64,000 bases of DNA from an uncultured bacterium (GCA_964570935.1 CAZMZP010000075.1:19173-83172), one strand, 5' to 3'. Positions 33,240-50,025 are shown, counted from the stretch's first letter. Translations and numbers: made by a program. Notes: generated by a model from the letters alone, not told the origin.

Positions 33240-35177
33240 TCACTTCAGTATCACCATCTTCGTCTCTGCAACGTTGTCCTTCGTGAACAGCTTGCAGAAG
33301 TAGACGCCCGAAGAAACAGCGCGTCCCGCGTTGTTCCTTCCGTCCCAGGTGGCCTTGTGCTTGCCCTGGTCCATGACGCCCTGGTACAGAGTCTTCACGA
33401 GCCGGCCGGACACGTCGTAGACGCCCATGTCCACCTCGCCCTTCTCGGGCAGAGAGAACGTGATGGTCGTCACCGGGTTGAACGGGTTCGGGAAGTTCTG
33501 CTCCAGCGCGAACACTACCGGCGCCGCGGGCGTCACCGGGTCCACTCCGATCACGTTGACGAGGTCGATGTCCGCGTCCCTGCGGGGCTCGATTCTGAAG
33601 TCATCGTAGATGTAATCGATGGGACCGCAGATGTTCATCCACACGCCCGGAGTCGGTATGTACGTGTAGTTGCCGTTGTGGCCGACCATGGCCGTGTCGA
33701 GGGAGCCGTAGGTGTCGGCGACTTTCCACTCACCGAACTGGTCGAAGCCGACCGTGTCGGCCACGAAGACCGGGTCGCAGCGCACGAAGACGCCCTCGTA
33801 GGATTCGGCAGTCGCGGCGCCGGTCTTGATGAGCGCGGGGTCGACGTGCGCGGGTCCGGGCAGGGAGTTGCCTGAGCTGTGAACCGCGAGGTAGTCGAGT
33901 CCGGTGATCTCGGTCTTGTAGAAGTACTCGCTCACGTACCCCGACACGACTATGCTGTCACCTTCGGCAATCGGAGTGGGCGGACCACCGTAGATCTGAA
34001 CTCCGCTCCACGGGCCACCAGGACGCGTTTCCACGTAGAAGTGGGTGATGTACGGCCCGGTGTCGGCAGTAACGATTCCGGCAACGGTTACCTGCTGGGT
34101 CGTGAGCGCGGAGCTGTCGTTGTCCACGGCCTTCATCGCCTGCACCACCGAGATGGGCGTCAAGCCGCCCCTGAAGGCGTAGGTCTGCGGCTGCGGCATT
34201 ATCGTGCCGGGACCCTTGCTCTTCACCCCGGCTACGGTCAGTTCCTCGGCCGTTCCGCCGACCTGCGTTCCGGTCGTCAGGGTCACAATCTGCTCGCCCA
34301 CGAGGTCGAGGGTAGCCGACAGGACCTGCACCCCGGAACCTAGGTAGTAGTTGTTTATGTTCTCAGCCGTAGCTTCGTCTACTCTCACGTCAAACGCCGC
34401 GTTGATACCGGTGTTGGAAATGGCATAGGCTAGAGACAGGTTTGGCGCCGGCGGAGCGCCAGAGTAGACGATGTCATCAGCGTTCCTCGGACAGATGTGG
34501 TATCTGCTGTTCTCGTAGTGGCCGATACCAGCTATAGACGTCAGCACTGTGCCGATAGGCGGCGGGGCGGGCCCGGGGCTCACCATCTTGTTGGTCCTGC
34601 AGTACATGGTCGTCGTATCGGTCGAAGGGGCATTCTGCCTGAACCAGAAGCTCGTCAGAGGATACGCTGGGTCGATGCCCGTGACTACCACGTCCTGGAA
34701 CCTGATGAGAGTGCCTTCCCACTGCTCCGCAGTTGCGTAAGCGTACGGCCGCATACCGAACTGATTGCACTGTAGCAGCTTTGGCGCCGGCACGATCATG
34801 CTGTCCACTATCGTCCAGGCGAGCGGGCTGTAGATCAGCTCCGAGCCCGACAGCGAGTCGTGGACTCCGGAGGGATACTCCAGGTACCTGATGGAGTCTA
34901 TCGTCACCACGTGACCCACCCTCAGGCCGCCTGTAGACGTGCTGCCCGTGTAGACCTGGATACCACCGTACGGACCACCGGACTTCTGCTGCGCCCAGTA
35001 GCCGTAAGTGCTCACGTAGTCGATGCCGGTTACCACAACCGTGTCGACCCTGACGATAGTGTTCTGCGGATACACAAGCTGCTGAATCTCGTATATCGTC
35101 GCCAGGGTCGCTGCCGACGCCACGCCCGCGGTGACAAACAGCAGCGCAACGACCATTGCTAGAACTCGTCTTTCCAT
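33240..35177 (-). CDS. Secreted protein with repeated OB-fold-like modules, Ig-like segment and C-terminal FlgD-Ig/CTD
   Basis: AGAAGGAGG RBS; signal peptide ending ASA; TIYEIQ and TPISVVQ...VTVAGIVTA modules; QNFPNPFNP...YDVSGRLV...SSGVYF tail. Confidence 0.82.
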   Translation of the reverse strand: MERRVLAMVVALLFVTAGVASAATLATIYEIQQLVYPQNTIVRVDTVVVTGIDYVSTYGYWAQQKSGGPYGGIQVYTGSTSTGGLRVGHVVTIDSIRYLEYPSGVHDSLSGSELIYSPLAWTIVDSMIVPAPKLLQCNQFGMRPYAYATAEQWEGTLIRFQDVVVTGIDPAYPLTSFWFRQNAPSTDTTTMYCRTNKMVSPGPAPPPIGTVLTSIAGIGHYENSRYHICPRNADDIVYSGAPPAPNLSLAYAISNTGINAAFDVRVDEATAENINNYYLGSGVQVLSATLDLVGEQIVTLTTGTQVGGTAEELTVAGVKSKGPGTIMPQPQTYAFRGGLTPISVVQAMKAVDNDSSALTTQQVTVAGIVTADTGPYITHFYVETRPGGPWSGVQIYGGPPTPIAEGDSIVVSGYVSEYFYKTEITGLDYLAVHSSGNSLPGPAHVDPALIKTGAATAESYEGVFVRCDPVFVADTVGFDQFGEWKVADTYGSLDTAMVGHNGNYTYIPTPGVWMNICGPIDYIYDDFRIEPRRDADIDLVNVIGVDPVTPAAPVVFALEQNFPNPFNPVTTITFSLPEKGEVDMGVYDVSGRLVKTLYQGVMDQGKHKATWDGRNNAGRAVSSGVYFCKLFTKDNVAETKMVILK

Positions 35178-35395
35178 CTCTCCTCCTTCTAAGAAACAAG
35201 TCACATCGGATGGATTAGCGTGTGCCAAATCAAGATTGGGTCCAGAATCACCTCCGTTCGAACACAAAGAATTTCTAATACACTTAGCCGTCAGCAGTGA
35301 CGGTGAAGCCACCCTCGCGGTCGGGCACGAAGCCCGCCCCTCGATGGCAGTTCCGTCACCGGAACAGCTTGCAACTTACGCAATTAGCTAGGCTA

Positions 35396-35424
35396 ATTAT
35401 AACCTAAAACCGGGCAAATGTCAA
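35396..35424 (-). promoter_or_regulatory. Perfect-consensus sigma70 promoter
   Basis: Minus strand TTGACA-17 nt-TATAAT; palindrome AATTAGC-N3-GCTAATT at 35382-35398 overlaps the -10. Confidence 0.85.
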
Positions 35425-35531
35425 TCGAAACAGCTACCTGCGGAGGCAACCCTTGGGGCATGTGGACGGCCCGGCGTCGACCCGGGGTGAGGCGGCTGCG
35501 ACCAGGCGGGAAGCGCCCTTCGCCCCACCGC

Positions 35532-36173
35532 CTACTTGATGCCGTGGAGCCGCTTGTACTCCGGCCAATTCCTCTTTAACTCTATGAAATCAGGCAGGTT
35601 GGCCCGTAGGAGGAAGGGGTTGGTGAGTTTCTCTTCGCCCATGGTGGAGCGCGGCCGGACTCCGTAATCGTGGCCGGGCCAGACTTCGGTCGAATCGGGC
35701 AGGGGCATGAGCTTCCGGTGGAGGCTCTCGTACTCTCGTCGCGCGCCGTCTCCGAAGTCGGTGCCCCCGACCTTCCCGACGAACAGCGTGTCGCCGGTCA
35801 GCAGCTTCCCGTTGACCAGAACACAGATGGAGTCGAGTGTGTGCCCGGGGGTGTGGATGATGCCGGCGCGCAGCCGGCCGGCCTCGAGCTCTGTCCCGTC
35901 TTCCACCGCGATGTCGTGCGCGGCGTTCGAAGAACTGTGCGCCACGATGAGCGCGCCAGTTTCTCTCTTGACGGCGGCGTTGCCCGCGATGTGGTCGGCG
36001 TGCGAGTGTGTGTTTACGATGTACTTCACATTGACGCCGAGCGACCGCACCCGCGCGATGAGGTGGTCACAGTCGAAAGACGGGTCGACCACGAACCCGA
36101 CGCGCGCCTCTTCGTCGGCCGCAATGTAAGCGAAGTTCCTGTCGCCGCCGGAATCTATCTGCTCGAAGATCAC
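35532..36173 (-). CDS. MBL-fold hydrolase (glyoxalase II-like)
   Basis: THSHADH, HTPGHT, TGDTLF, PGHDY; GTGA overlap with PNP. Confidence 0.88.
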   Translation of the reverse strand: MIFEQIDSGGDRNFAYIAADEEARVGFVVDPSFDCDHLIARVRSLGVNVKYIVNTHSHADHIAGNAAVKRETGALIVAHSSSNAAHDIAVEDGTELEAGRLRAGIIHTPGHTLDSICVLVNGKLLTGDTLFVGKVGGTDFGDGARREYESLHRKLMPLPDSTEVWPGHDYGVRPRSTMGEEKLTNPFLLRANLPDFIELKRNWPEYKRLHGIK

Positions 36174-37009
36174 TTCTTTCCTATCTCCCTCACAAGTTCT
36201 TTGAAGAACGGGACCAGGCGCGTGACCGTCTTCCCGACGACCTCGGCCACTTCCTCGTGGCTCAGCTCGGCGTTTCCGATGCCTGTCGCCAGGTTAGATA
36301 TGCAGGAGAGCCCCAGCACGCGCAGACCCAGAGTGTTCGCAACGAGCACCTCGTGCGCCGTGGACATGCAAGCTGAATGAGCGCCGATCCTCCGCATGAA
36401 TTCGGATTCGGCTCCGGTCTCGTAGCTGGGTCCGGTAGAACTGCAGAGCACGCCCTGTTTCAGCGCGACGCCGTACCTTTCGGCCGCGCGCCTGGCCACG
36501 TCCATGTATACGCGGTCGTACAGAGCGGGGCATCTCCTTGCCAGGGGCTCCGTCTTCCAGCCGCACTCTCCCCTGAGTGGCTGGCGAAACGTCAGGTCTA
36601 TGTGGTCCTGCACGAGCATCACGTCGCCGGGTCCGATGTCGCGCGTGAACGAACCGCTGGCGTTGGTCACTATCAGGGAGTGAACCCCGAGCGCGGCCAG
36701 CACTCTGACCGGGAACGTGACGTCGGCCGGAGAATGACCCTCGTAAAGATGAACACGGCCCTGGAGTATGGCGACGTGAGTCTCCGCGAAGCGCCCCAGC
36801 ACGAGAAAGCCCTGGTGGCCGTGAACCGTGGGCGGCTTGAAGTGCGGGATGGTCGAATACGGGATGGCGCAGCCTCTGTCGACTTCGGCAACGAGCGGCC
36901 CGAAGCCGGACCCCAGGATGATTCCCAAGGAAGGGACAGCCGGGCATTCTCCACGGACCCGCCTCACCGCGTCTTTTACCATCTGGTCTCTTTCGTCCCA
37001 GTTCGTCAT
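36170..37009 (-). CDS. punA: Purine nucleoside phosphorylase (trimeric family)
   Basis: IILGSG, GRVHLYEGH, TNASG, GPSYET, MSTAHE, SNLATG. Confidence 0.9.
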   Translation of the reverse strand: MTNWDERDQMVKDAVRRVRGECPAVPSLGIILGSGFGPLVAEVDRGCAIPYSTIPHFKPPTVHGHQGFLVLGRFAETHVAILQGRVHLYEGHSPADVTFPVRVLAALGVHSLIVTNASGSFTRDIGPGDVMLVQDHIDLTFRQPLRGECGWKTEPLARRCPALYDRVYMDVARRAAERYGVALKQGVLCSSTGPSYETGAESEFMRRIGAHSACMSTAHEVLVANTLGLRVLGLSCISNLATGIGNAELSHEEVAEVVGKTVTRLVPFFKELVREIGKK

Positions 37010-37047
37010 CTGTTACCTTTCTTCGGCTGCGGCACGAGCGCCGCCGC

Positions 37048-37962
37048 TCACTGTCTTTCTTTCTGGTAAGGCACTCCGTCCGCCGCCGGCGGGACTGAGC
37101 GGCCTATGAAACCCGCCAGGACCGCGATCGTCGCGACGTACGGTATCATCTGGATGAATTGAGTCGGTACGTTTCCTCCCTGGAGCTGCATCTGGAGAGT
37201 CTCCGCGGCCCCGAAAAGGAGGCACGCGCCGGCCGCACCCAGAGGATTCCATTTTCCCACGATCATGGCGGCCAGCGCAATATAGCCCCTGCCGCTGGAC
37301 ATGCCGTCCGTGAAACTGTGCTGGTCCATCGCCAACCAGGCGCCTCCCAGGCCAGCCAGGGCTCCGCTGGCCAGCACCCCGGCGTACCGCATCGCGGTCA
37401 CGTTCACGCCCAGACTGTCCGCCGCCTCGGGGTGCTCGCCCACGGAGCGAAGCCTCAGCCCGAAAACGGTCTTGAAGAGCGTGAGCTGGCTCGCCGCCAC
37501 GACCACGACCGCCGCCAGGATCAGCGGCGAAGAGAATATCGTGGAGACGACCGGGATGTCCCGCAGCACGGGAATGGCCCACTCGGGCAGTCCCGCGATC
37601 CTGCCCGAATTGCTGGAGCTTCCGAAAATGACTTTCAGGAAGAAGCGCGTGGCGCCGGCGGCGAAGAGGTTGATGGCCAGCCCGCTCACTATCTGCTCCG
37701 CTTTGAGAGTAATCGTCACGACCGCGTGTATGAGGGCGGTCGCGACCCCGCCCGCCACCGCGGCCAGAATCCCCAGCCACGGGTTCCCGGTGTAGTGAGT
37801 GGCCAGCGCGCACGTGAACGCGCCGTTCAGGAGAATACCCTCCAGGGCGATGTTCACGACGCCGCCGCGTTCCGAAAACGTGCCGCCCACCGCGGCCAGC
37901 GTGTACGGCACGGATATCCTGATCGTCTGCGCCACGAACGTGAGGACTATCATCCAGTCCAT
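37048..37962 (-). CDS. Nucleoside-type ABC transporter permease (NupC/YufQ-like)
   Basis: SERGGVVNIALEG, GLRLRSVGEHP, GRGYIALAA. Confidence 0.9.
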   Translation of the reverse strand: MDWMIVLTFVAQTIRISVPYTLAAVGGTFSERGGVVNIALEGILLNGAFTCALATHYTGNPWLGILAAVAGGVATALIHAVVTITLKAEQIVSGLAINLFAAGATRFFLKVIFGSSSNSGRIAGLPEWAIPVLRDIPVVSTIFSSPLILAAVVVVAASQLTLFKTVFGLRLRSVGEHPEAADSLGVNVTAMRYAGVLASGALAGLGGAWLAMDQHSFTDGMSSGRGYIALAAMIVGKWNPLGAAGACLLFGAAETLQMQLQGGNVPTQFIQMIPYVATIAVLAGFIGRSVPPAADGVPYQKERQ

Positions 37963-37974
37963 CGCACCGGTTCC

Positions 37975-39096
37975 TTACCTGAGCGACCTCTTCTTCAACG
38001 ACACCGCAAGCGCGCCGAAGAGGTTGGTACCGACTATGACCGCGACAATGACTATCGCTTGGAGTATTTCCACCAGCTCCTTCGGCACGACGGAGTTTAT
38101 GACGAGCCCGCCGTAGCTCAGCGCCCCGAACAGCAGAGCCGCCAGCACCACGCCCAGCGGATGATTCCGGCCCAGCAGCGCGACCGCTATGCCCATGAAA
38201 CCTATTCCGGCCGAGAAGCCCTGTTCGTAGTAGTACTTGTAGCCCAGGACGAAGTCGACCCCCACCAGACCGGCCAGGGCTCCGCTGAGCGTCATTGCCG
38301 TCACGATCCCGGAGGCCACGCTCACTCCGCCGTACTCCGCCGCCCACGGGTTCAAACCCACGGCCCTCAGCTCGAAACCGTGCTTCGTCCTCCACAGGAA
38401 CAAGTACACGAGAACGGCCACCGCCAGGGCCAGGAACAGACTGACGTTCACGGGCGAACCCTTGAACGCCGGCCAGAACTGTTCGAGCCGCGGTATCTGC
38501 GCCTGCGGGGCTATCCTCGGGGTGTGAATCGTCTCCGGGACTATGTACACGTTCGTTACCATGTATCCGGTCAACGCGATGGCTATGAAGTTGAGCATGA
38601 TCGTGTTTATGACTTCGTGAGTGCCGAACCTGGCCTTGAGATACCCGGGTAAGGCTCCCCAGGCCGCGCCGCCCAGGGCGGCTGCCACGACGCAAAGCGG
38701 CACCAACGCCACACCAGGCAGCCCCGTCAGCGTGAACCCCACCCACGCCGTACAGAACGCGCCAACGTACAGCTGGCCCTCCGCGCCTATGTTGAAAAGG
38801 CCCGCTTTGAACGCCAGGGCCACCGCCAGTCCCGAGAAGATGAGGGGCGTGGCCTTAAAGAGGACCTGTCCGAACCCGTAGGAATCCCCGAACGTGCCCC
38901 TGGCTAGCCTGGCGTATACAAGGCCCGGGTCCTGTCCAATGGCGGCTATGAAAAGCGCGCCGACCCCAAAGGCGGCGGCAAGCGCGACCAACGGGACGCC
39001 CACGGCCCCCCCAAGGCTGAGGAGAAGACCCGTCCGGGTCCTTCCGGGTGCCCGGGTTTCGGGCGGCGCGTTCAAGTCAGTGAGATTGTGGTTCAT
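37975..39096 (-). CDS. Nucleoside-type ABC transporter permease (NupB/YufP-like)
   Basis: GLFNIGAEGQ, HEVINTIMLN, GFELRAVGLNP, GFMGIAVALLG. Confidence 0.9.
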   Translation of the reverse strand: MNHNLTDLNAPPETRAPGRTRTGLLLSLGGAVGVPLVALAAAFGVGALFIAAIGQDPGLVYARLARGTFGDSYGFGQVLFKATPLIFSGLAVALAFKAGLFNIGAEGQLYVGAFCTAWVGFTLTGLPGVALVPLCVVAAALGGAAWGALPGYLKARFGTHEVINTIMLNFIAIALTGYMVTNVYIVPETIHTPRIAPQAQIPRLEQFWPAFKGSPVNVSLFLALAVAVLVYLFLWRTKHGFELRAVGLNPWAAEYGGVSVASGIVTAMTLSGALAGLVGVDFVLGYKYYYEQGFSAGIGFMGIAVALLGRNHPLGVVLAALLFGALSYGGLVINSVVPKELVEILQAIVIVAVIVGTNLFGALAVSLKKRSLR

Positions 39097-39187
39097 TCGC
39101 TCACCGGTAGAAGTCAGCTTCGTGCCAAGGAGACTACGCCTGCGCGTGGCCGCGCTGCCGCCCCGCGTGAGCGGCCACCGCCGCGCA

Positions 39188-40747
39188 TCACGCAGTCGGC
39201 CGGCCGGCGCCGGTCATCAGGAGTCCCAGTTCCTTCTCGTCGGTCGCGGCCGCATCGACTGTGCTCACGACCCTGCCGCCGAACACGACGGCTATTCTGT
39301 CGCTCAGGCTCAGGATCTCGGACAGGTCCGCGGACACGAGCAGCACGGCCGTGCCGGCGTCTCTCTGCGAGACGAGACAGCGCCTGATGAACTCTATGGC
39401 CCCGATGTCCACGCCCCTGGTGGGCTGGGCCGCCACCAGCAGTACCGGCTTGCGGCCCAGCTCGCGGGCCACGACCAGCTTCTGCTGGTTGCCTCCGGAC
39501 AGCGCGCCGGCCCTCAGGAAGGGAGCCCGCGGCCTGACGTCGAACTCCCGGAGGGCCCACTCCGCGTTCGCCAGGACGGCGTTCGAGTCCAGAAACACCC
39601 GGCCGGCGTAAGGCGGCCTGAACTGAGAGCCCAGGATCAGGTTCTCACCCACGGTGAACTCCGTTATGAGCCCCCGCTTCAGACGGTCCTCCGGAATGTG
39701 CGCCACCCCGCGTTCGAGCATCTGTCTGGGAGACGAACCTGTGACGTCGTGGCCCCCGAGCAGGACTCTGCCGGAGGCCGGTTTCCTGAGCCCGGCGATC
39801 ACCTCCACGAGCTCCGTCTGGCCGTTCCCCTCGACTCCAGCCACTCCCAGGATCTCGCCGGCGTGGACGCTCAAGGAAAGGCCCTTCAGTCTGGGCACCC
39901 TGCCTGCGCCCAGCGCGTGAACGTCTATGAGCTCCAGCACCGCTCCGCCCGGCGCGGCAGGACCCTTGTCCACGTCGAACAAGACTCTTCTTCCCACCAT
40001 CATCATGGCCAGCTCCGCGGGCGACGAGTCCCGCGTGTCGACCATGCCCACGACCCTGCCGTGGCGCATAACGGTCACTCTGTCGGAGATCTCCATGACT
40101 TCGTTCAGCTTGTGCGTGATGAAGACGATGGTCTTTCCCTGCTCCCTCATCTTCCGCAGTATGATGAAGAGGGCGTCGGTCTCCTGGGGCGTGAGAACGG
40201 CCGTGGGTTCGTCAAGTATGAGGAGCTCCGCGCCCCTGAAGAGTATTTTCAGTATCTCTACGCGCTGCTGCGCTCCCACGGACAGTTTCTCGACCTGCGC
40301 CAGCGGGTCCACGGACAACGCGAACAGCCGGGAAAGTTCGTCTATTCTCCGGGACGCGGACTTGAGATCCAGGAACACGCCGGACCGCGAAGGCTCGGAG
40401 CCGAGGACGACGTTCTCGGCCACCGACAACTGCGGGATCAGCATGAAATGCTGGTGCACCATCCCGACGCCAAGCGAAATCGCGTCCGCCGGGGTCCTGA
40501 TATCGGTCCTCATCCCGTCGAAGGAAATGCGGCCGGAATCGGGCCTGTACAACCCGTACAGTATGCGCATGAGAGTGGACTTGCCCGCGCCGTTTTCACC
40601 CACCAGCGCGTGGATCTCGCCCTTCCGCACGTCGAGGCTCACGCAGTCGTTGGCCTTGACGAGGGCGAAGCGCTTGGATATGCCCTCCATTTGAAGGAAG
40701 GTCGGGGAACGGGGCGAAGCGGGGGTGTCACGTGGAGGGAACAACAA
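39188..40747 (-). CDS. Two-domain ABC ATPase (NupA/YufO-like)
   Basis: GENGAGKST, LDEPTA, LSGGNQQK, QPTRGVD; exact start uncertain. Confidence 0.92.
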   Translation of the reverse strand: MLFPPRDTPASPRSPTFLQMEGISKRFALVKANDCVSLDVRKGEIHALVGENGAGKSTLMRILYGLYRPDSGRISFDGMRTDIRTPADAISLGVGMVHQHFMLIPQLSVAENVVLGSEPSRSGVFLDLKSASRRIDELSRLFALSVDPLAQVEKLSVGAQQRVEILKILFRGAELLILDEPTAVLTPQETDALFIILRKMREQGKTIVFITHKLNEVMEISDRVTVMRHGRVVGMVDTRDSSPAELAMMMVGRRVLFDVDKGPAAPGGAVLELIDVHALGAGRVPRLKGLSLSVHAGEILGVAGVEGNGQTELVEVIAGLRKPASGRVLLGGHDVTGSSPRQMLERGVAHIPEDRLKRGLITEFTVGENLILGSQFRPPYAGRVFLDSNAVLANAEWALREFDVRPRAPFLRAGALSGGNQQKLVVARELGRKPVLLVAAQPTRGVDIGAIEFIRRCLVSQRDAGTAVLLVSADLSEILSLSDRIAVVFGGRVVSTVDAAATDEKELGLLMTGAGRPTA

Positions 40748-41804
40748 TCTCTCCGGAAACTATTTTTTGCTTGAGCGTCTCGACCCTGGCGCGTATGTCT
40801 TCGCCGATCAGTGCCTTGTTGTTGTCGTCGTACACGTAGCTGATCCCGCCCTCCTTGAGACCGAGCGCCCTCACCCCGCCCTCGAACGTGTTGTTCATCG
40901 CGGACTTTATGGTCTCCAGGACCGCGACGTCCACGTCCTTGATCATGCTCGTGAGGATGTAGCCCGGCGCCTCGGCGTACTGGTCGGAATCCACGCCTAT
41001 GGCCAGCTTGCCTTTTTCCCTGGCCGCCTCGAAGACGCCCAGACCCGTCGAGCCGGATGCGTGAAATATCACGTCCGCGCCCTTGGAGTACTGCGTCAGC
41101 GCCAGCTCTTTACCCTTGCTGGGGTTCTTGAACGCGTTGTCCGTGACGCCGGCGTAAGACACGAACACTTTCACGTCGGGCCGGACGTACGTCGCGCCGG
41201 CGATGTAGCCCGCCTCGAACTTCTTGATGAGGGGGATCTTCATGCCACCCACGAAACCTATCTTGCCCGTCTTGCTCTTCAGCGCCGCCACGGCGCCCAC
41301 CAGGAAGGAGCCCTCTTCCTCTCTGAACTTGAGAGCGACCAGGTTGGCCGGGATGCTGTCGGCGTCCGTGACCGTGTAATCCACGCACGCGAACTTCTTG
41401 TCTGGAAACTCCTTCGCGGTCTGCGTTATGTCGTCGGTGAACAGGAAGCCGATTCCGAAGATGACCCGCGCGTCTCCGTTGGCCATCAGACGGAGCGCGG
41501 AGGCCCTGTCGCTTCCTTCGCCCGGCTCGATGTACTCGAAGTCCACTCCCAGCTCTTCCTTGGACCTCACGAGTCCCCTGTAGGCGGAGTCGTTGAAAGA
41601 CTTGTCGCCCCTGCCGCCGACGTCGAACACCAGCCCGACCTTGAAAGCTGCGTTCGCGGCGCCCGAGTCCGTCTCGTCCGTCCCGCTCTTTTCCTTCTTC
41701 GCGCAGGACAATGCGCAGACCGTCAGAAAAAGCGCAAGGCAGAGCATCGCTGTCACGAAGAAACCGGCTGAGTGCTTTCGGCGCGCGGCGTGAAGCGTTC
41801 TCAT
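40728..41804 (-). CDS. BMP-family nucleoside-binding lipoprotein (PnrA/TmpC-like)
   Basis: GGAGG RBS; lipobox ALSC; GDKSFNDSA, GADVIFHASG, AIGVDSDQ. Confidence 0.9.
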   Translation of the reverse strand: MRTLHAARRKHSAGFFVTAMLCLALFLTVCALSCAKKEKSGTDETDSGAANAAFKVGLVFDVGGRGDKSFNDSAYRGLVRSKEELGVDFEYIEPGEGSDRASALRLMANGDARVIFGIGFLFTDDITQTAKEFPDKKFACVDYTVTDADSIPANLVALKFREEEGSFLVGAVAALKSKTGKIGFVGGMKIPLIKKFEAGYIAGATYVRPDVKVFVSYAGVTDNAFKNPSKGKELALTQYSKGADVIFHASGSTGLGVFEAAREKGKLAIGVDSDQYAEAPGYILTSMIKDVDVAVLETIKSAMNNTFEGGVRALGLKEGGISYVYDDNNKALIGEDIRARVETLKQKIVSGEIVVPST

Positions 41805-41842
41805 GAAGTCTGATTCCTCCAACTGGGTCGTTTCCGGCGCGG

Positions 41843-42526
41843 TCATTTCCGGCCGGACCTTCCGGCGCCTGGCTTCCCGGTCCCGGGTTTCCTGCCGGCG
41901 GGCTTCTTCGGGACTGTATTCTTTCCGCCGGACTTCTTCGCGTCGGACGGGGCCGGCCGTTCTTTCCCGGGCGGCTCGAAGCAGTGACGGCACCTGGCCT
42001 CGTACAGGTCGGCGGCGCCGACCACTATTCTCTCCTTGCTCGGGACCTTGCGTTGGGTCCTGTTCGCCGGGTTGCCGCAGACAACGCAGATGGCCAGCGT
42101 CTTGGTGATGTACTCCGCCACGGCCAGCAGCTGCGGCATGGGCTCGAAGGGCTTTCCGGTGTAGTCCTGGTCCAGCCCCGCCACTATCACTCTCTTGCCG
42201 CTGTCGGCCAGCTTCTGGCACACGCCTATGAGGTCGGCGCCGAAGAACTGCGCCTCGTCGATTCCGACGGCGTCCGCGTCCATGGCCCTCTTGAGTATTT
42301 CGCCGCAGTCGGAAACCTCCTGCGAGGGTATCCGCTGGAGATTGTGGGATACGATGTGGTCGCTGCCGTATCTCCGGTCTATCCGCGGCTTGAAAATGGA
42401 GACTTTCTGCCTGGCGATCTGCGCCCTCCTCAGCCTCCTGATGAGCTCCTCGGTCTTCCCGCTGAACATGCTTCCACAGATGACCTCGATCCAGCCGGTG
42501 TTCTTCTGCGGGATGTTCTCAGTCAT
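41843..42526 (-). CDS. tdk: Thymidine kinase
   Basis: [37 protein letters not shown]; basic tail. Confidence 0.95.
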
Positions 42527-42594
42527 TTTGCACCTTCCTCACGCGTCTCGCGAGAACGCGCCGGCGGCCGGCGCGGCAAGTCTCGACGCGACGC

Positions 42595-43209
42595 TCACAG
42601 CAGCGAGCGGATCTTGGTCTTTAAGAGATCGATGGCGACTACGTTATGTCCGCCCTGCGGGATTATGATGTCGGCGTATCTCTTGGACGGCTCCACGAAC
42701 TGCAGGTGCATCGGACGCACGCTGCTCTCGTACTGCTCGATTATGGACTCGATACCGCGGCCCCTCTCCCTCAAGTCCCGCTTGAGCCTCCTGATGAACC
42801 TCTCGTCCGCGTCCGTGTCTATGAACACCTTTATGTCCATCAGGGTCCGCAGTTCGACGTCGTCCAGGATGAGGATGCCCTCCAGCACGATGACGAGATG
42901 CGCCCCGATCCTCCTGGTCTCCCCGCTCCTGCGATGCTGGGTGAAATCGTAGATCGGCTGTTCGATCTGCCGGCCGTGGATGAGCTTCAGGATGTGCTCC
43001 CTGAGGAGGGGCATGTCGAACGCGTCGGGATGGTCGAAGTTCTGCCTGCAGCGCTCCTCGTACGGCAGGTGGCACATGTCGTTGTAGTAGGAGTCCTGCT
43101 TGATTATGACGACCTTGTCCGACCCCAGCTCGGAGTAGATGGTGTCGGCCACGAGGGTCTTGCCCGAACCCGACCCGCCCGCTATCCCGATGACGATGGC
43201 CTTGCTCAT
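42595..43209 (-). CDS. udk: Uridine kinase
   Basis: GGSGSGKT, NFDHPDAFD, EGIL, RDLRERGR, FVEPSKRYADIIIP. Confidence 0.95.
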   Translation of the reverse strand: MSKAIVIGIAGGSGSGKTLVADTIYSELGSDKVVIIKQDSYYNDMCHLPYEERCRQNFDHPDAFDMPLLREHILKLIHGRQIEQPIYDFTQHRRSGETRRIGAHLVIVLEGILILDDVELRTLMDIKVFIDTDADERFIRRLKRDLRERGRGIESIIEQYESSVRPMHLQFVEPSKRYADIIIPQGGHNVVAIDLLKTKIRSLL

Positions 43210-43221
43210 TCCTTCGACCTT

Positions 43222-43524
43222 TCAGTCACGCGGCCCCGGCCTGGCGCCGTCCGTCTCCGGCAGGTCCACGCTGTCGACGACGCCAACGATGACGGTTCTG
43301 ACGGGTCCCCTCTGCATCTTGAGGATCTGGGACGCGGCGTTTCCCTCGTCCGACACCAGCACCATGTCCCCGCCGCCGGCGCCCACGCTGTCCACTGCGA
43401 TCACGGGTTTGCCGCTGGGGGAGAGGGACAAGTCTAGCGGGCGGACCAGGAGGAGCTTCTTTCCGCGGAGGTCTCTATGCTTTACTGTGGCGGCTATCTT
43501 CCCCACAACTCGTGCAAGGAACAT
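43222..43524 (-). CDS. EutN/CcmL family microcompartment vertex (BMC-P) protein
   Basis: MFLARVVGKIAATVKH, KLLLV, AVDSVGAGGGD.VL, VIVGVVD. Confidence 0.9.
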   Translation of the reverse strand: MFLARVVGKIAATVKHRDLRGKKLLLVRPLDLSLSPSGKPVIAVDSVGAGGGDMVLVSDEGNAASQILKMQRGPVRTVIVGVVDSVDLPETDGARPGPRD

Positions 43525-44182
43525 TTTCACAACCTGCCAGCGTGCCGGACATCTCGCAATCGTGTGACTTGACGAGCCCCACGATCTCGTCGATCTTGTG
43601 CGCGTGCTCGATGAAATTCACGGTGTCGGTGTCGACCTCGTGGACTCGCGTCATCCTGCGCGCCCTCCCAAGCCATTCTTCGTAAGCGTCGTCGAGCGTT
43701 TTCAGATAGTCGAGCGTTATTGACTTCTCACTCTCCCGGCCCCTGTGCTTTATCCTGTCCATCAGGCTCACGGGTTCGGCGCGCAGGTAGATTATGAGGT
43801 CGGGCGGCCTGATGAACTCGAGCATCGTGTCGAACAGCGCCTTGTAGTTGGCGTAGTCTCTGTCGCACATGTGGCCGAGGCGGTTGAGCGTTCTGGCGAA
43901 GACTTCGGCGTCCTCGTAGATGGTCCTGTCCTGGATGAAGGAGACGCCGGATTCCAGCATCTTCTTCTGGGCCTGGAATCTCTTCGAAAGGAAGAAGATC
44001 TGGAGATGGAAGCTCCATCTGTTCATGTCCTTGTAGAAATCGTCCAGGTAGGGGTTGTCGATCACGGGCTCGTAATACGCCTGCCAGCCGGTCCGCCTGT
44101 TAAGCTCTCTCGTCAGGCAAGTCTTTCCGGCTCCGATGTTGCCGGCGATCCCGAGAAAAAAGCTCTTGTGTTCCACGGCCAT
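43475..44182 (-). CDS. Deoxynucleoside kinase (dCK/dGK family)
   Basis: GNIGAGKT, EPVIDNPYL, QIFFLSKR, DRTIYED, RGRESE. Confidence 0.92.
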   Translation of the reverse strand: MAVEHKSFFLGIAGNIGAGKTCLTRELNRRTGWQAYYEPVIDNPYLDDFYKDMNRWSFHLQIFFLSKRFQAQKKMLESGVSFIQDRTIYEDAEVFARTLNRLGHMCDRDYANYKALFDTMLEFIRPPDLIIYLRAEPVSLMDRIKHRGRESEKSITLDYLKTLDDAYEEWLGRARRMTRVHEVDTDTVNFIEHAHKIDEIVGLVKSHDCEMSGTLAGCENVPCTSCGEDSRHSKA

Positions 44183-44187
44183 GGTCC

Positions 44188-44757
44188 TCAGGGCACTCCG
44201 ATCTCCGACTCTTCCAGAGTGGCCACGTAGGGGAGGTTTCTGTACTTCTGGGCCAGGTCAAGCCCGTACCCGATGACGAACTTGTTCGGAATCACAAAAC
44301 CCACGTAATCAATCGCTATGTCGACCTCCCTCCTTTCGCGCTTGTCAAGAAGCGCGCATATCCTGAGCGAACGCGGGAGCCTGGCGAGGAGCATTCTCTT
44401 TATGTAGGACAGGGTAAGGCCGCTGTCCACGATGTCCTCTATGATGATGACGTCCTCGTTGCTGATGTCTCTCTCCAGGTCTTTGAGCAGCCGCACGACG
44501 CCGGAGCTCCTGGTGAGGTTGTTGTAGCTCGACACGGACATGAAGTCGATTTCGGGGTTGATGGTGAGATGCCTAACCAGGTCGGACAGAAACAGAAAAC
44601 TGCCTCTCAGGATTCCTATGAGGATGGGGGATTGACCGGGGTAGTCGCGGGAGATCTCGAGGCCAAGCTCCTTCACGCGTTTCTGTATTTGTTCTTCTGT
44701 GAGCAGGACTTCCATTGATTGCCCCGGGACCGCCGCCTGTCGCAGAGTGGATCGCAT
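44188..44757 (-). CDS. hpt: Hypoxanthine phosphoribosyltransferase
   Basis: GILRGSFLF, IIEDIVDSGLTL, FVIGYGLD, YRNLP; start could be 44757 or 44715. Confidence 0.93.
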   Translation of the reverse strand: MRSTLRQAAVPGQSMEVLLTEEQIQKRVKELGLEISRDYPGQSPILIGILRGSFLFLSDLVRHLTINPEIDFMSVSSYNNLTRSSGVVRLLKDLERDISNEDVIIIEDIVDSGLTLSYIKRMLLARLPRSLRICALLDKRERREVDIAIDYVGFVIPNKFVIGYGLDLAQKYRNLPYVATLEESEIGVP

Positions 44758-44783
44758 TACTTTGTTCCGCAACAGTGGATCGC

Positions 44784-44812
44784 TTGACCGTTTCCCGCAG
44801 CTTATGTATAGT
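44784..44812 (+). promoter_or_regulatory. sigma70 promoter of the deaminase-rpiB unit
   Basis: TTGACC-17 nt-TATAGT. Confidence 0.7.
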
Positions 44813-44877
44813 TCTATCTTACTTCACTGGTGACAAGCGGCGAACGGCTCTCTTGGCCGCTCAAAAAGCTGTGGTGG

Positions 44878-44906
44878 AGTCTAGCGCGAACGGATTCGGG
44901 TGTCAA
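44878..44906 (-). promoter_or_regulatory. sigma70 promoter of the hpt salvage operon
   Basis: Minus strand TTGACA-17 nt-TAGACT. Confidence 0.7.
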
Positions 44907-45013
44907 CTCTTAACTCTGGTTGGCGCTTCCGGATTCGGGGCGCTCCGCGGGCGGACGCACGCACGCTTCAGTGGGGTCACCCGCGGTCTCACGCCGCGTT
45001 GCAGGAGGTCAGG

Positions 45014-46375
45014 TTGGACGCAACTCTGTTGACGGGCGGCACCGTCATAACCATGAACGCTTCCAGGGAAGTGTTGCGGGCCGACGTGATGATAGAGGGC
45101 GGCGTCATCACCGCCGTCGGGCAGAACCCGGGTGGTTGGGCGCGGCGCGCTGCCGGACATTCCTGGCTTCGGACGCTGGACGTCGGCGGCAGCTACGTCC
45201 TTCCCGGCTTCATCCAGACTCACGTGCATCTTTGTCAGACGCTGTTCAGGGGCCAGGCCGAGGGAGTCGGACTCGCCGGCTGGCTGGACAGGATATGGAC
45301 TCTCGAAGCCGCTCACGACCCCGAGTCCATGCGCGCCTCCGCCGCGCTGGGCTGTAACGAGCTGTTGAAGGGCGGAACCACGTGCGTCCTCGACATGGGA
45401 AGCGTTCACCACACCGACCAGGTGTTCGAGGCCGCACGGGCGAGCGGCATAAGGGCCTTCTGCGGCAAGGCCATGATGGACGCCGGTGACCACGTGCCTC
45501 CCGGGCTCAGAGAGACCACCGACGAATCCATGTCTGAGGCGCTGCGGCTTCACGGGAGGTGGCACGGCGCCGACGGCGGCAGAATTCAGTACGCGTTCGC
45601 GCCGCGGTTCCTGGAAAGCTGCAGCGAAGACCTGCTGCGCGGGGTGGCCGCGAGCGCTCGCGAGATGGTCCTCCTCGTGCATTCTCACGCCTCCGAGACC
45701 GCCGCCGAGCTGGAGGACTGTAAGTCCCGGCACGGCGTGAGCCCCGTCAAATACCTCGAATCACTCGGGCTGGCCGGTCCGAACCTCGTGCTGGCCCACT
45801 GCATACATCTGGAGGACGACGACTTCAGAATCCTGGCCGAGACCGGTACGAAGGTGGCTCACTGCCCGTCCTGCAACCTCAAGCTTTCCTCCGGGATAGC
45901 GGACGTCGACCGTCTCGCGCGGTCCGGCGCGGCAGTGTCGCTGGGCAGCGACGGCGCCGCCTGCAACAACAACCTCGACATGTTCCAGGAGATGAGGACT
46001 GCCGCGCTCCTGCAGAGCTACAAGAATGGAGGCGGGCACCCGTGGGCAGGGCTGTTCCTGGAGGCGGCGACCCTGGGAGGGGCGAAGGCGCTGGGCATAG
46101 ACGGCATAGTGGGCAGCATCGAACCGGGGAAGAAGGCCGACCTGATTGTGGTAAACGTCTCGGGAGAGCACGCGCTCTGCGGCCCCGGCTGCGACCCCGC
46201 CACGAGGATCGTATTCTCGGCAAAGAGCTCCGACGTGAAGCACGTCTTCGTAGGCGGCCGCCCGATTGTCGCGGCCGGCGAGATCTGGCAGGGTCCGTAC
46301 GCGGGTCCGTCCTCGCGCGAAGTGACGGTCAACGCTTCGAGGGCGCTCGAGAAGCTGCTCGCGCGCTGCGCCTGA
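45014..46375 (+). CDS. Amidohydrolase, MTA/SAH/5'-deoxyadenosine deaminase family
   Basis: AGGAGG before TTG 45014; HVHLCQTLFRG, HSHASE, AHC, HCPSCNLKL, LGSDG. Confidence 0.85.
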   Translation: MDATLLTGGTVITMNASREVLRADVMIEGGVITAVGQNPGGWARRAAGHSWLRTLDVGGSYVLPGFIQTHVHLCQTLFRGQAEGVGLAGWLDRIWTLEAAHDPESMRASAALGCNELLKGGTTCVLDMGSVHHTDQVFEAARASGIRAFCGKAMMDAGDHVPPGLRETTDESMSEALRLHGRWHGADGGRIQYAFAPRFLESCSEDLLRGVAASAREMVLLVHSHASETAAELEDCKSRHGVSPVKYLESLGLAGPNLVLAHCIHLEDDDFRILAETGTKVAHCPSCNLKLSSGIADVDRLARSGAAVSLGSDGAACNNNLDMFQEMRTAALLQSYKNGGGHPWAGLFLEAATLGGAKALGIDGIVGSIEPGKKADLIVVNVSGEHALCGPGCDPATRIVFSAKSSDVKHVFVGGRPIVAAGEIWQGPYAGPSSREVTVNASRALEKLLARCA

Positions 46376-46401
46376 AACTGGCGACGGCATGAGGTGAAGG
46401 C

Positions 46402-46989
46402 ATGGAACGTCAGAAGATCACTCCGGAGAGAATAAGGAAAGTAGTGCGTGAAGTCCTCGAGGAGACGACCCGCGAAGGCCCCGTGGGCGCGACTCGCGTC
46501 CCGGCAGGTGCGCCTGCCGGTCCCAAGGCAAAGGCGCCTGGCGCCGTTGCGCTGGCCGTGGGCGCCGACCACGGCGGATTTGCCTTCAAGGAGCTCTTGA
46601 GGAAATACCTCGAGCAGGAACTGGGGATTGTGGTCAAGGACTGCGGCACTCACGGGCCGGAGTCGGTCGACTATCCCGACTTCGCCCTTGCCGTGGCCAG
46701 GGCCGTGGCGTCGGGCGAATGTGAGAAGGGCATCGTCGTAGACACCATGGGGATCGGGTCCTCCATAGCCGCCAACAAGGTCAAAGGAATCCGTGCCGCG
46801 CTCTGCCACGACGTGGACACCGCAAGGAACAGCCGGGCGCACAACGACGCCAACGTGCTGGCCTTGGGCTCCAAGGTGGTCAACTCCGGTCACGCCCGGC
46901 GGATAGTCAGGGAATGGCTGGCCACTGCTTTTGAGGGCGGCAGGCACGCCAAGAGAGTTCAGAAGATAACAGACGCCGAACGCGCGTGA
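46402..46989 (+). CDS. rpiB: Ribose-5-phosphate isomerase B-like protein with N-terminal extension
   Basis: GADHGG, DYPDFA, GIG..IAANKVKGIRAA, HNDANVL, FEGGRHAKRV. Confidence 0.9.
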   Translation: MERQKITPERIRKVVREVLEETTREGPVGATRVPAGAPAGPKAKAPGAVALAVGADHGGFAFKELLRKYLEQELGIVVKDCGTHGPESVDYPDFALAVARAVASGECEKGIVVDTMGIGSSIAANKVKGIRAALCHDVDTARNSRAHNDANVLALGSKVVNSGHARRIVREWLATAFEGGRHAKRVQKITDAERA

Positions 46990-47002
46990 AGCCCGAATAC
47001 TG

Positions 47003-47032
47003 TTGACGCAAACCGCGCCGTTTTGATACGGT
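47003..47032 (+). promoter_or_regulatory. Putative sigma70 promoter of the TBDR locus
   Basis: TTGACG-18 nt-TACGGT with extended TG. Confidence 0.4.
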
Positions 47033-47109
47033 TGATGCGCTCTAGTTCTGTCCGCGGCCGGACTGCCGCGCTTTCCTCTCCTATCCGAACGGAGGATGCG
47101 AAAAGAATC

Positions 47110-50025
47110 ATGACGAAAGTGACAGGCTATCCAAAGTCGTCGTCGGCTAAACACGCCGGGCCGGGGCCATGCCTCCGGCTCTTACTGTTGCTGTTCATCC
47201 CCGTCTTTCTCCTGCTGCCCGCCTCGGACGCCTACTCCCAGGGGGTTGGCCGAGTCCTGGGCAAGGTGCTGGACGCCGCGACCGGGAAACCACTGCCTTT
47301 CGCCAACATAGTCATACTGGAGACCCAATTCGGTGCCGTGTCCGCCGAGGACGGTGAGTACATAATCGTCGGGATTCCGCCGGGCGTGTATTCGGTCCGG
47401 GCCAGTCTCATCGGTTACACCGGCGTGGTCAGGAAGGACGTCAGGGTCACGGCGGACCAGGCCGCGAGAGCCAACTTCGAGCTCCAGCAGGTGGCCGTCG
47501 GCGGCAGGGACGAGGTCGTCATCTGGTCCACCAGGCCGATGGTCGAAGTGGACGTGGCTTCGACGAAGAGGAACATCTCGGCCGAAGAGCTCAGAGTCCT
47601 GCCCGTTGGCGAGACCGTACAGGACGTGATGGCGAGGCAGGCGGGTATCGTAAGCTCCAAGGACGAGCTCCACGTCAGGGGCGGCAGGACCGACGAAGTC
47701 ATCTACATAATAGACGGAGTGAAGATGAAAGACGCCCTCTCGGGCGGCTCCAGCGGCGACCTCATCGGCGCCCGGTCGGTGGCGGAGATGAGCGTCATCA
47801 CGGGCGGGTTCAGCGCCAAGTACGGCCAGGCCCTTTCCGGCGTCGTGGACGTGAAGGTGAGGGAGGGCGGCTCCGCGTACCGCGGAGGCATCACATATTC
47901 GACGGACCGTACTCCGCTGTTCAGCTATTACAACTATGACTATGTCGACTTCCAGCTCAGCGGTCCGGAACCACTGACAACGTACTTGCTGCCCAAGCTC
48001 AAGGCCAAGATCCCCGGGGAAGTCACGTTCTTCATGAACCTGTCCGGCGACGTCTCAGACACCTATCTTCCGGACTTGAACGACATGGCCGCGAGAAAGG
48101 ACCAGGTCACCGTCATAGAGGCGGGTGGGTTCCGCATCCCTCTGTACACCGGCGGAGACAAACCACGTCTGGTGTCCAGCTACAGGGACAAGATACTGGG
48201 CCGCGAGTTCACGTATGGTTCTTTCTTCAGCCCCAGGAGCGACAACAACTGGAGGGCCATCGGGAAGCTGGTCTGGAAGCCCAACGCGGCGCACAAGTTC
48301 GGCGTGTCAGCGACGAAATGGATAGGGATAGGACAGGGGTTCGCCGAGCACGACATCGGTGAGGTCGCCAAGAACATCACCAGCTACCCGTGGTCATGGA
48401 CCAACCGGCTCGACCATTACTACACAATCACCAGCGACCAGAACAGCTTCTCGGCTTTCTGGCGGCAGAACATCAGCAAGTCCTCGTACCACAACTTGCA
48501 GGTATCCAGGTATTTCAGCGCCTCGCACCGTGACGTGGCGGGGAAGAAGTGGAGCGGGTATGAGCAGCCCGACGACAGCGCGCTTCCCGACAGTCTCGAC
48601 TCCATCTACTTTATTGACAGCGGCGACGTCGCGGACTGGAGGGACAGGTACATAGAGACGTGGGGCCTCGCGTGGGACCTCACCAAGCGGTTCGAGCCCC
48701 ACCACGAGTTCATCACCGGGTTCGACAGCCAGTACGAAAACGTGCAGTACATCAGCATATCAAGACCCTGGGAGTACGACACGGACGGACTGGGGCGTGA
48801 GCACGACCTCTTCCACGTCTACCCCAACAAGGGCTCCCTGTACGCCGAAGACAAGCTCGAGTACGAGGGTTTCATTGCCAAGATAGGCGTCCGTTACGAC
48901 TACTGGTTCCCGGGTGAGGCCCTGGAGAGAGTGATTGACGACACCACCAACACGAACATCACGTCTTTCACGAGGGCCAACTTCTACCACGACACGAAAG
49001 AGGTCTTCGGTCATCGCTTCAAGGCTCACATGAGTCCGCGCCTGGCGATCTCCCATCCCGTCACGGAGAGAGACAACCTGTTCTTCAACTACGGGCACTT
49101 CACCCAGTGGCCGACGTACTACTACATCTACTCAAAGATCACGTCGGTGTCGAGCGAGAGCTATCCCAGGATAGGCAACCCCAACCTGAACCCGGAGATC
49201 GCAGTCCAGTACGAGCTGGGCGCAAGACACCAGTTCACTAACGACATGGCAGGCGACGTCACGCTGTTCTACAAGGACATCTACGACTACCCGACGGCCA
49301 CGCCGTTCACGCTGCAGGCGGGCATCGACCCGTCCACTGGGCAGCCCCTGCTGACCACGTTCTTCATTTACAGAAACGTCGACTACGCCAGGTCCAGGGG
49401 CGTGGAGCTGGAGTTCAAGAAGAGGAGAACCAACAACGTCTCGTTCGGCCTGTCGTACACCTATTCGCTGGCGACCGGCAAGAGCTCCGACCCCAACGCG
49501 GCCAAGCTGGTCCAGGAGGCCGGCGGCGACTTCAGCGAAGCCAACCTGGGCGAGGTCTACATGTGGTGGAACAGACCTCACAAGCTTACTTCCTGGCTGG
49601 AGTACCGGGTGCCGATAGACGCCCCTCCGGCGGAGTGGGGCAGGCTGAAGATCCCGCCCGGATGGTCCATCTACTTCTACTGGTACATCACGAGCGGGGA
49701 AGCATACACGCCCAGAGACTCGGAGGGCAGGGAGAGCGGTGAGGACTACTCCCGGAACGGACCGCTGGAGAGCCAGCTCAGCATGAAACTGACCAAGGTG
49801 TTTAAGCTGCGTAACGACAAGAGGCTCGAGGTCGTGTTCCAGGGCTGGAACATCCTGAACAGAAAGAACCCCATGGAAGTGGACCCACAGACCGGCGAAC
49901 CATACGAGCCGGGCGCGGGAACGATGATAAGGAACAACACGCTGTACTACCGCACGCAGTACAGCAACCCTGCGTACTTCGGCGTGCCCAGGAACTTCAG
50001 GCTGGCCGTCTCCTACGAGTGGTAG
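47110..50025 (+). CDS. TonB-dependent receptor with N-terminal carboxypeptidase-regulatory-like domain
   Basis: Signal peptide; GKVLDAATGKPLPFAN; plug HVRGGRTDE...IDG; GNPNLNPE; PRNFRLAVSYEW. Confidence 0.9.
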   Translation: MTKVTGYPKSSSAKHAGPGPCLRLLLLLFIPVFLLLPASDAYSQGVGRVLGKVLDAATGKPLPFANIVILETQFGAVSAEDGEYIIVGIPPGVYSVRASLIGYTGVVRKDVRVTADQAARANFELQQVAVGGRDEVVIWSTRPMVEVDVASTKRNISAEELRVLPVGETVQDVMARQAGIVSSKDELHVRGGRTDEVIYIIDGVKMKDALSGGSSGDLIGARSVAEMSVITGGFSAKYGQALSGVVDVKVREGGSAYRGGITYSTDRTPLFSYYNYDYVDFQLSGPEPLTTYLLPKLKAKIPGEVTFFMNLSGDVSDTYLPDLNDMAARKDQVTVIEAGGFRIPLYTGGDKPRLVSSYRDKILGREFTYGSFFSPRSDNNWRAIGKLVWKPNAAHKFGVSATKWIGIGQGFAEHDIGEVAKNITSYPWSWTNRLDHYYTITSDQNSFSAFWRQNISKSSYHNLQVSRYFSASHRDVAGKKWSGYEQPDDSALPDSLDSIYFIDSGDVADWRDRYIETWGLAWDLTKRFEPHHEFITGFDSQYENVQYISISRPWEYDTDGLGREHDLFHVYPNKGSLYAEDKLEYEGFIAKIGVRYDYWFPGEALERVIDDTTNTNITSFTRANFYHDTKEVFGHRFKAHMSPRLAISHPVTERDNLFFNYGHFTQWPTYYYIYSKITSVSSESYPRIGNPNLNPEIAVQYELGARHQFTNDMAGDVTLFYKDIYDYPTATPFTLQAGIDPSTGQPLLTTFFIYRNVDYARSRGVELEFKKRRTNNVSFGLSYTYSLATGKSSDPNAAKLVQEAGGDFSEANLGEVYMWWNRPHKLTSWLEYRVPIDAPPAEWGRLKIPPGWSIYFYWYITSGEAYTPRDSEGRESGEDYSRNGPLESQLSMKLTKVFKLRNDKRLEVVFQGWNILNRKNPMEVDPQTGEPYEPGAGTMIRNNTLYYRTQYSNPAYFGVPRNFRLAVSYEW

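Follow-up and report, generated by a model that had tools for sequence, protein, structure and literature searches.

Microcompartments (BMCs) of the sugar-phosphate-utilising (SPU) type are proposed to act on deoxyribose-5-phosphate from nucleic-acid breakdown (Axen 2014; Sutter 2021; PMC11585597). Their RPI, an RpiB-type protein, carries an N-terminal encapsulation peptide (EP) and lacks the catalytic Cys; it is a DERA-binding protein with little isomerase activity (Dwyer, Sutter & Kerfeld 2024, PMC11585597). SPU, HO, and related BMCs have three pentamer (BMC-P) paralogs, though twelve pentamers cap a shell, which PMC11585597 describes as an open question. In the classification by Sutter et al. 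2021 (PMC8217296), such triplets consist of one green, blue, or purple BMC-P plus one grey and one orange member, the latter two of unknown role. The same catalogue (Supplementary Data 2) contains MIC7, a “metabolosome with incomplete core,” as six loci with no function assigned. According to its MIC7 text, the loci have AldDH only besides shell proteins, the AldDH is nearest that of SPU3, the triplet is green/grey/orange, and PduS and BMC-Ts occur in a subset of the loci.

Shell genes outside a main locus have precedents, two of which resemble the case that we describe here, a BMC-P gene (P3) within a nucleoside operon. Common to this case and the HO BMC (Haliangium ochraceum, type I) are a triplet in which one vertex protein is canonical, grey/orange paralogs encoded in a satellite, a pfam00596 aldolase, and, elsewhere in certain genomes, an EP-tagged pfam01791 aldolase. 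In the HO system, however, two non-canonical BMC-Ps and the aldolase lie in one satellite, whereas here one paralog leaves and is found among kinases and a transporter. The CcmK3/K4 satellites of beta-carboxysomes are likewise shell paralogs obligately encoded off the main locus, an arrangement thought to permit separate regulation of shell properties, but these are BMC-H paralogs in a small locus of their own and not a pentamer gene in a substrate-supply operon. Our literature search found no paper linking microcompartments with these nucleoside kinases. What is new here is the dispersal of organelle parts and the insertion of P3 into a substrate-supply operon.

The window, a 64,000-nucleotide stretch of contig C75, comes from an uncultured “Candidatus Eisenbacteria” bacterium (assembly of 2.48 Mb in 105 contigs, 94% complete). 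P3 occupies positions 43222 to 43524 on the minus strand. Its reading frame extends over 43222-43530, and since the N-terminus MFLARVVG is common to P3 and all orthologs in the alignment, the start is placed at the canonical ATG 43524, giving a protein of 100 aa. P3 matches the full EutN_CcmL model (PF03319, residues 1-83) with 90.2 bits (E 1.3e-25; cutoff 25). An AlphaFold2 monomer model (pLDDT 87) has the OB-like beta-barrel fold of solved pentamer subunits, and Foldseek superposes it on pentameric GrpN, CcmL, EutN, and HO BMC-P (5V74) with target-normalised TM-scores (TMt) of 0.8 to 0.9, among them GrpN 4I7A (TMt 0.89, rmsd 1.6 Å). Profile and fold thus bear out the original prediction, which had read a EutN/CcmL gene here from the sequence alone. 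Pairwise dN/dS values of P3 against its orthologs are 0.04 to 0.19, close to those of the two other BMC-Ps of the genome (P1 and P2), indicating that P3 is under purifying selection.

The same prediction had called the gene an orphan and had seen no BMC-H/T gene in the window. In a profile search of the genome's contigs, no PF00936 (BMC-H/T) match fell on the window's contig and all four fell on contig C5. The term orphan therefore describes the window well and the genome badly, as a complete shell locus lies elsewhere. In order, C5 encodes a PduL-type PTAC, two BMC-H proteins, P1, an acylating AldDH (BMC-type model NF011927, 626 bits), an RnfC/PduS-like flavoprotein, a tandem BMC-T, and P2, followed by a Zn-ribbon gene, HU, RNase R, and PilZ. 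P3 thus co-occurs in the genome with two BMC-H genes and one tandem BMC-T gene, and the PTAC, AldDH, and PduS-like protein are the only non-shell products of the main locus. The N-termini of this AldDH and PTAC bear helices comparable to the putative encapsulation peptide of an RpiB encoded near P3 (see below).

Homologs of P3 at 60 to 65% identity end main loci of the order H-H-P1-AldDH-T-P2-P3-(Zn-ribbon)-HU-RNB-PilZ, with flanks as on C5. P3 is orthologous to the final shell gene of such main loci, has relocated, and is the third member of the BMC-P triplet. We considered whether the Zn-ribbon gene after P2 fills the vacated slot of P3 and rejected this, since loci with resident P3 often read P3-Zn-ribbon as well. 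With its main locus on C5 and P3 on C75, the genome has a satellite BMC locus as defined by Sutter 2021; in the closed genome G004, from the same family, P3 and the main locus are 1.29 Mb apart.

A maximum-likelihood tree of 54 BMC-P sequences resolved P1, P2, and P3 as monophyletic, with supports of 98/96, 99/96, and 100/98 (ultrafast bootstrap for these clades, 98 to 100%). Within this tree, the P3 clade (support 98/96) holds the window's protein together with resident and relocated P3 copies. The protein clusters with SPU/MIC7 triplet paralogs and not with Eut/Pdu vertices; clustering with Eut/Pdu vertices was one of two conditions that, according to the original prediction, would have spoken against it. 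P1 scores 105 bits against the structurally proven shell vertex BMC-P of H. ochraceum (PDB 5V74), whereas P2 and P3 reach about 55 bits at most against any solved BMC-P. All canonical motifs (GAGxGE, GSSAR, and IVD) are kept in P1, and P2 has SAAPGQ and RGREAANA. In P3, DEGNxAxQ, with a one-residue insertion, replaces GSSAR, and the same loop occurs in resident P3 proteins inside shell operons. An xAGxGD motif, of a type assigned a hexamer-contact role in PMC13370225, is present in 19 of 20 P3 sequences. Because this acidic contact motif is kept, P3 most likely inserts into the shell. The combination of one canonical clade (P1) with two non-canonical ones (P2 and P3) is the triplet composition of SPU loci.

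P3 is the third of 11 genes in a minus-strand operon. The first is hpt, for hypoxanthine phosphoribosyltransferase (44188-44715; TIGR01203, 213.6 bits; conserved ATG at 44715), followed by dNK, for a deoxynucleoside kinase (43475-44182; PF01712, 184 bits). The dNK stop codon ends at 43475, an overlap of 50 nt with the start of P3, and 12 nt separate the P3 stop at 43222 from the start at 43209 of udk, for uridine kinase (42595-43209; NF004018, 302.6 bits). Next is tdk, for thymidine kinase (41843-42526; PF00265, 179.9 bits; NF003296, 261.5 bits). The overlap, the gap, and the two adjoining kinase genes are as originally predicted, and Pfam and NCBIfam confirm all four neighboring genes. The dNK C-terminal tail and its overlap with P3 are kept solely within the window's own family; in G008, dNK ends about 4 nt into P3. 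A Lys/Pro/Gly-rich C-terminal tail extends tdk by about 40 aa past the Pfam domain (41843-41960).

Downstream, all on the minus strand, the operon encodes a BMP-family lipoprotein, the putative substrate-binding protein of a nucleoside ABC importer (40728-41804; 78% identity to a PF02608 gene of locus L013, lipoprotein-like N-terminus); an ABC transporter ATPase with two ABC domains (39188-40690; ortholog of the L013 gene with two PF00005 matches); and two ABC permeases (37975-39096 and 37048-37962; orthologs of the L013 PF02653 genes). It continues with a purine nucleoside phosphorylase (PNP), which releases (deoxy)ribose-1-phosphate (36170-37009; PF01048, 151.8 bits; NF006054, 279.6 bits, cutoff 218), and ends with a metallo-beta-lactamase (MBL)-fold hydrolase (35532-36173; PF00753). 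With anabolic functions assigned to the kinases and hpt, the operon does not serve catabolism alone.

The promoter scan placed divergent, overlapping sigma-70-like promoters upstream of hpt, one directed toward hpt (44906-44878, minus strand) and one toward genes for a deaminase and the RpiB (44784-44812, plus strand). The former is the sole minus-strand promoter-like site before the operon. After the MBL gene, a terminator-like hairpin at about 35430 lies beside the next promoter (12/12 consensus), and around P3 the promoter/terminator scan gave no internal promoter or terminator beyond weak noise. No riboswitch or other known RNA was matched in Rfam at E ≤ 1 across 34500-47500, which includes the operon leader. 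From the gene spacing, the single promoter-like site, and the absence of an internal terminator, P3 is most likely co-transcribed with the nucleoside importer, three nucleoside kinases, hpt, and PNP. In one metatranscriptome, a few short contigs from a relative 97 to 99% identical cross the dNK/P3 and hpt/dNK junctions, which lends weak support to co-transcription, as DNA carry-over is possible. Both promoter hexamer pairs are conserved in three relatives. The promoter-like elements at 44780-44910 face each other, such that the 5' leaders would overlap antisense by about 50 nt, and an element between them (GACGGCCAnGAGAGCC) is also kept in three relatives.

In a profile scan for P3 loci, using one genome per GTDB species, we took the best 80 loci. 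About 70 of these have resident P3 (T-P2-P3-HU-RNB-PilZ), nearly all in Eisenbacteria, and hpt-(dNK)-P3-udk-tdk occurs in five. Also among the best 80 are loci of Spirochaetota and Anaerolineae that read AldDH-P2-P3-RpiB(EP)-DERA, the classical SPU layout. Two of the Spirochaetota SPU loci (L150 and L153), each with a complete P2-P3-RpiB-DERA set, directly adjoin Bmp/ABC nucleoside-transporter-like genes; this layout appears to be an independent association of an SPU-type organelle with nucleoside import.

A survey of placement in 31 genomes of the same class found P3 in the nucleoside operon in the window's family (G000 to G004, DG_63, and JGI contigs) and beyond it in G007; in G008 and G015; in G010; and in G023 and G029. 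The relocated placement is thus kept in at least five families (the window's and at least four others) and is not unique to this genome; uniqueness was the other condition that, according to the original prediction, would have spoken against it. Three of these genomes, from two families (G010, G023, and G029), have hpt-P3-udk-tdk without dNK. Every genome with an operon-borne P3 has a main locus without exactly P3, while P3 is resident in the main locus of G009, G011, G013, G014, G020, G024, G026, and G030. In G006, P3 is found in a third location outside the hpt-udk operon, after genes for a GNAT acetyltransferase and dCTP deaminase (L076; contig C223, 8298-9948). PF03319 had no match in any of the seven BMC-less relatives among the 31 genomes, so that P3 is lost together with the shell. 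One of these, G017, retains the amidohydrolase gene divergent from hpt-dNK-udk-tdk, without P3.

The gene on the other side of the shared intergenic region encodes this amidohydrolase, a putative purine-nucleoside deaminase of the adenosine/5'-deoxyadenosine type (45035-46375, plus strand, approximate start; PF01979). Its score against NF005557, the model for 5'-deoxyadenosine deaminase, is 504.9 bits, just below the cutoff of 522; in G008, the equivalent divergent position is occupied by a classical adenosine deaminase gene. Next to it and 2.9 kb from P3, also transcribed divergently from the same intergenic region as the operon, is a gene for an RpiB-type sugar-phosphate isomerase (46402-46989, plus strand; PF02502 at residues 52-189), a putative SPU-type RPI cargo or scaffold. 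Its N-terminal extension of about 50 aa consists of an amphipathic helix (ITPERIRKVVREVLEE) and a Pro/Ala linker and is unique to it among the three RpiB paralogs of the genome. In place of the catalytic Cys it has Asp (DTMGIG), and both helix and DTMGIG are conserved in relatives. This protein therefore has the defining traits of an SPU RPI: pfam02502, an N-terminal EP, and no catalytic Cys. A second RpiB paralog keeps the catalytic Cys (CYSGIG) and runs without a stop into serine hydroxymethyltransferase-like sequence up to the contig end (C104:24317-25444), which may represent an RpiB-GlyA fusion.

Searches with Pfam and tblastn found no DERA gene in the assembly of the window's genome, whereas 29 of the 31 relatives have one. 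In G004, DERA (TIGR00126, 279 bits) has an EP-like helix (ELVERIAREVLQRL) and a Cys motif and lies in a deo operon with deoB (phosphopentomutase), cdd (cytidine deaminase), and pdp (pyrimidine nucleoside phosphorylase). A block of about 8 kb in G004 (deoB, cdd, DERA, pdp, a class A PBP, and tyrS) is missing from our assembly, between the end of C51 and the start of C5. Because deoB, pdp, the PBP, and the essential tyrS are missing too and alr is cut by the end of C51, we attribute the absence of DERA to an assembly gap and not to loss; by comparison with relatives, the genome of the window probably encodes it. G008 has an RpiB-DERA pair at a distance of about 5 kb from the P3 operon; the shell locus is about 630 kb away from the pair.

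A class II aldolase gene (PF00596, 162 bits) lies far from any shell gene, between glnA (glutamine synthetase) and nnr (NAD(P)HX repair), on contig C10 of the window's own genome (G000; 5004-5852; L165). At its C-terminus, the product has an amphipathic helix (EKRLSDIITAVINEI; EKRLSDIITAVINEITQEG) that looks like an encapsulation peptide, together with a Pro/Ala/Gly linker and a Cys motif (CETCGYCG), making the enzyme a second candidate for an aldehyde-generating cargo. For this reason, the organelle may have substrates besides deoxyribose-5-phosphate, or a different main substrate. In G004, the sole PF00596 match is weak (73.8 bits) and in a different context. Cys-rich motifs stand beside the helices of three putative cargos: at the N-terminus of the PTAC (CQECGYCPG; L008:13916-14647), at the C-terminus of the aldolase (CETCGYCG), and at the N-terminus of DERA (CLTCIACGEC; L025:7472-8338). 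They may be a shared metal-binding or shell-docking element.

The system shares with SPU an acylating AldDH with an N-terminal EP, PTAC, a PduS homolog, the BMC-P triplet, an EP-tagged RPI without the catalytic Cys, and, in relatives, DERA with an N-terminal helix extension; moreover, P3 orthologs adjoin RpiB-DERA in the SPU loci of Spirochaetota. It differs in that DERA and RPI of SPU are encoded in the shell locus, whereas here RPI lies by the nucleoside operon, P3 within it, and DERA, in relatives, in the deo operon. The main locus on C5 has no SPU signature enzymes and is therefore filed as MIC7 by the catalogue and as SPU-like by mechanism. As far as the MIC7 text of the catalogue goes, the likeness extends to the lineage (“Ca. 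Eisenbacteria” and the “Latescibacteria” DG_63 lineage), to a main locus of AldDH plus shell genes, and to the triplet, all of which our locus has; it differs from MIC7 in its additional PTAC, and a PduS-like protein is also present. DG_63, which that text lists as MIC7, has the arrangement hpt-dNK-P3-udk like the window. The same catalogue text does not mention nucleoside genes, a nucleoside-operon P3 satellite, or EP-tagged DERA, RPI, or class II aldolase.

We consider it likely that P3 is a shell subunit made from the nucleoside-operon transcript and that it serves a dispersed SPU-like organelle with encapsulated DERA and AldDH/PTAC. Under this model, some of the imported (deoxy)nucleosides would enter salvage through the kinases and hpt, and others would be cleaved by phosphorylases (PNP and Pdp). 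Phosphopentomutase would convert deoxyribose-1-phosphate to deoxyribose-5-phosphate, which encapsulated DERA would split into glyceraldehyde-3-phosphate and acetaldehyde. The acetaldehyde would be held inside the shell for AldDH and PTAC to turn into acetyl-CoA and acetyl-phosphate. The cargo genes and one vertex gene of this SPU-like organelle would thus be scattered into nucleoside-metabolism operons, and with P3 in the substrate-supply operon, the amount of the shell subunit would be tied to nucleoside availability. The original prediction had left two readings side by side, co-regulation of shell closure with nucleoside supply and a shell-independent role of the pentamer. The former is plausible and fits everything found: a single promoter-to-terminator unit, the divergent EP-tagged RpiB, a DERA-type organelle in relatives, and conservation in at least five families.

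A bolder form of this model, which we offer as a tentative speculation, is that P3 is a substrate-licensed subunit: nucleoside supply would set completion or remodelling of the shell, whether by vertex closure, by a specialised vertex, or by docking of DERA-RPI. MIC7 would then be a hub shell loaded from dispersed regulons with EP-tagged DERA, class II aldolase, and an inactive RPI scaffold. If this were true, the members of BMC-P triplets would serve under particular conditions instead of being redundant caps.

The alternative that survives best is a neutral relocation, in which P3 works only as a shell subunit and its position in the operon is an accident without regulatory meaning; P3 would persist there since the cell has to encode it in some place and other pressures keep the operon intact. 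A gene order that persists once a single insertion has occurred could simply have been inherited, and grouping of the relocated copies in one clade was not rejected by an AU test on the short P3 tree (p-AU 0.115), compatible with one old event. BMC cargo genes are also generally scattered in this lineage, as the class II aldolase between glnA and nnr illustrates, and the P3 of G006 sits in yet another context. Against these points, on the gene tree of the shell-locus AldDH the relocated state must have changed at least three times. The new home is also non-random, as it encodes the uptake and phosphorolysis that would feed the predicted substrate; the EP-tagged RpiB gene is adjacent in the window's family, as RpiB-DERA is in G008, and whole SPU loci adjoin Bmp/ABC genes in Spirochaetota. 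Within the operon, P3 is tightly packed between dNK and udk, without a promoter of its own. On balance, we regard a purely accidental placement as improbable.

It is considerably less probable that the nucleoside link runs mainly through disposal of 5'-deoxyadenosine/MTA and not through DNA-derived deoxyribose. By that route, a deaminase and PNP would yield 5-deoxyribose-1-phosphate, an isomerase would convert this to 5-deoxyribulose-1-phosphate, and the EP-tagged class II aldolase would release DHAP and acetaldehyde within the shell. The near-cutoff score of the amidohydrolase on the 5'-deoxyadenosine deaminase model fits this route, as do the presence in the genome of a class II aldolase with a C-terminal EP and the altered active site of the encapsulated RpiB, whose substrate is unknown in the literature. 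However, no MtnA-type isomerase or kinase was noticed beside these genes, the deaminase of G008 is an ordinary adenosine deaminase, the PF00596 match of G004 is weak and in another context, and EP-tagged DERA in the classical deo operon of relatives points to deoxyribose-5-phosphate. Least credible of all is the second reading of the original prediction, a shell-independent role. In the form considered here, the small oligomer would now work with the nucleoside kinases, perhaps as their scaffold or regulator, and would have given up its microcompartment function. Although P3 is translationally entangled with dNK, lies between two kinases, and is missing the GSSAR loop of structurally proven vertex proteins, its DEGNxAxQ loop is shared with resident orthologs in shell operons, the hexamer-contact motif is kept, the main locus is without exactly P3 wherever P3 has relocated, dNK is no constant partner (two families do without it in the arrangement), and the BMC-less relatives have no P3, including G017 with its kinase operon.

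Returning to the dispersed SPU-like organelle that we favor, one BMC-P paralog has split from its shell operon and is wired into the operon for supply of the predicted substrate, in several families and under purifying selection. Its relocation singles out P3 for experiment from among the unexplained BMC-P paralogs. More generally, a BMC classification built on the 12 genes surrounding shell genes can overlook cargo identifiable solely by its encapsulation peptide. For MIC7, our results offer a functional reading, in which this type would be a dispersed SPU-like organelle for nucleoside-derived sugar phosphates.
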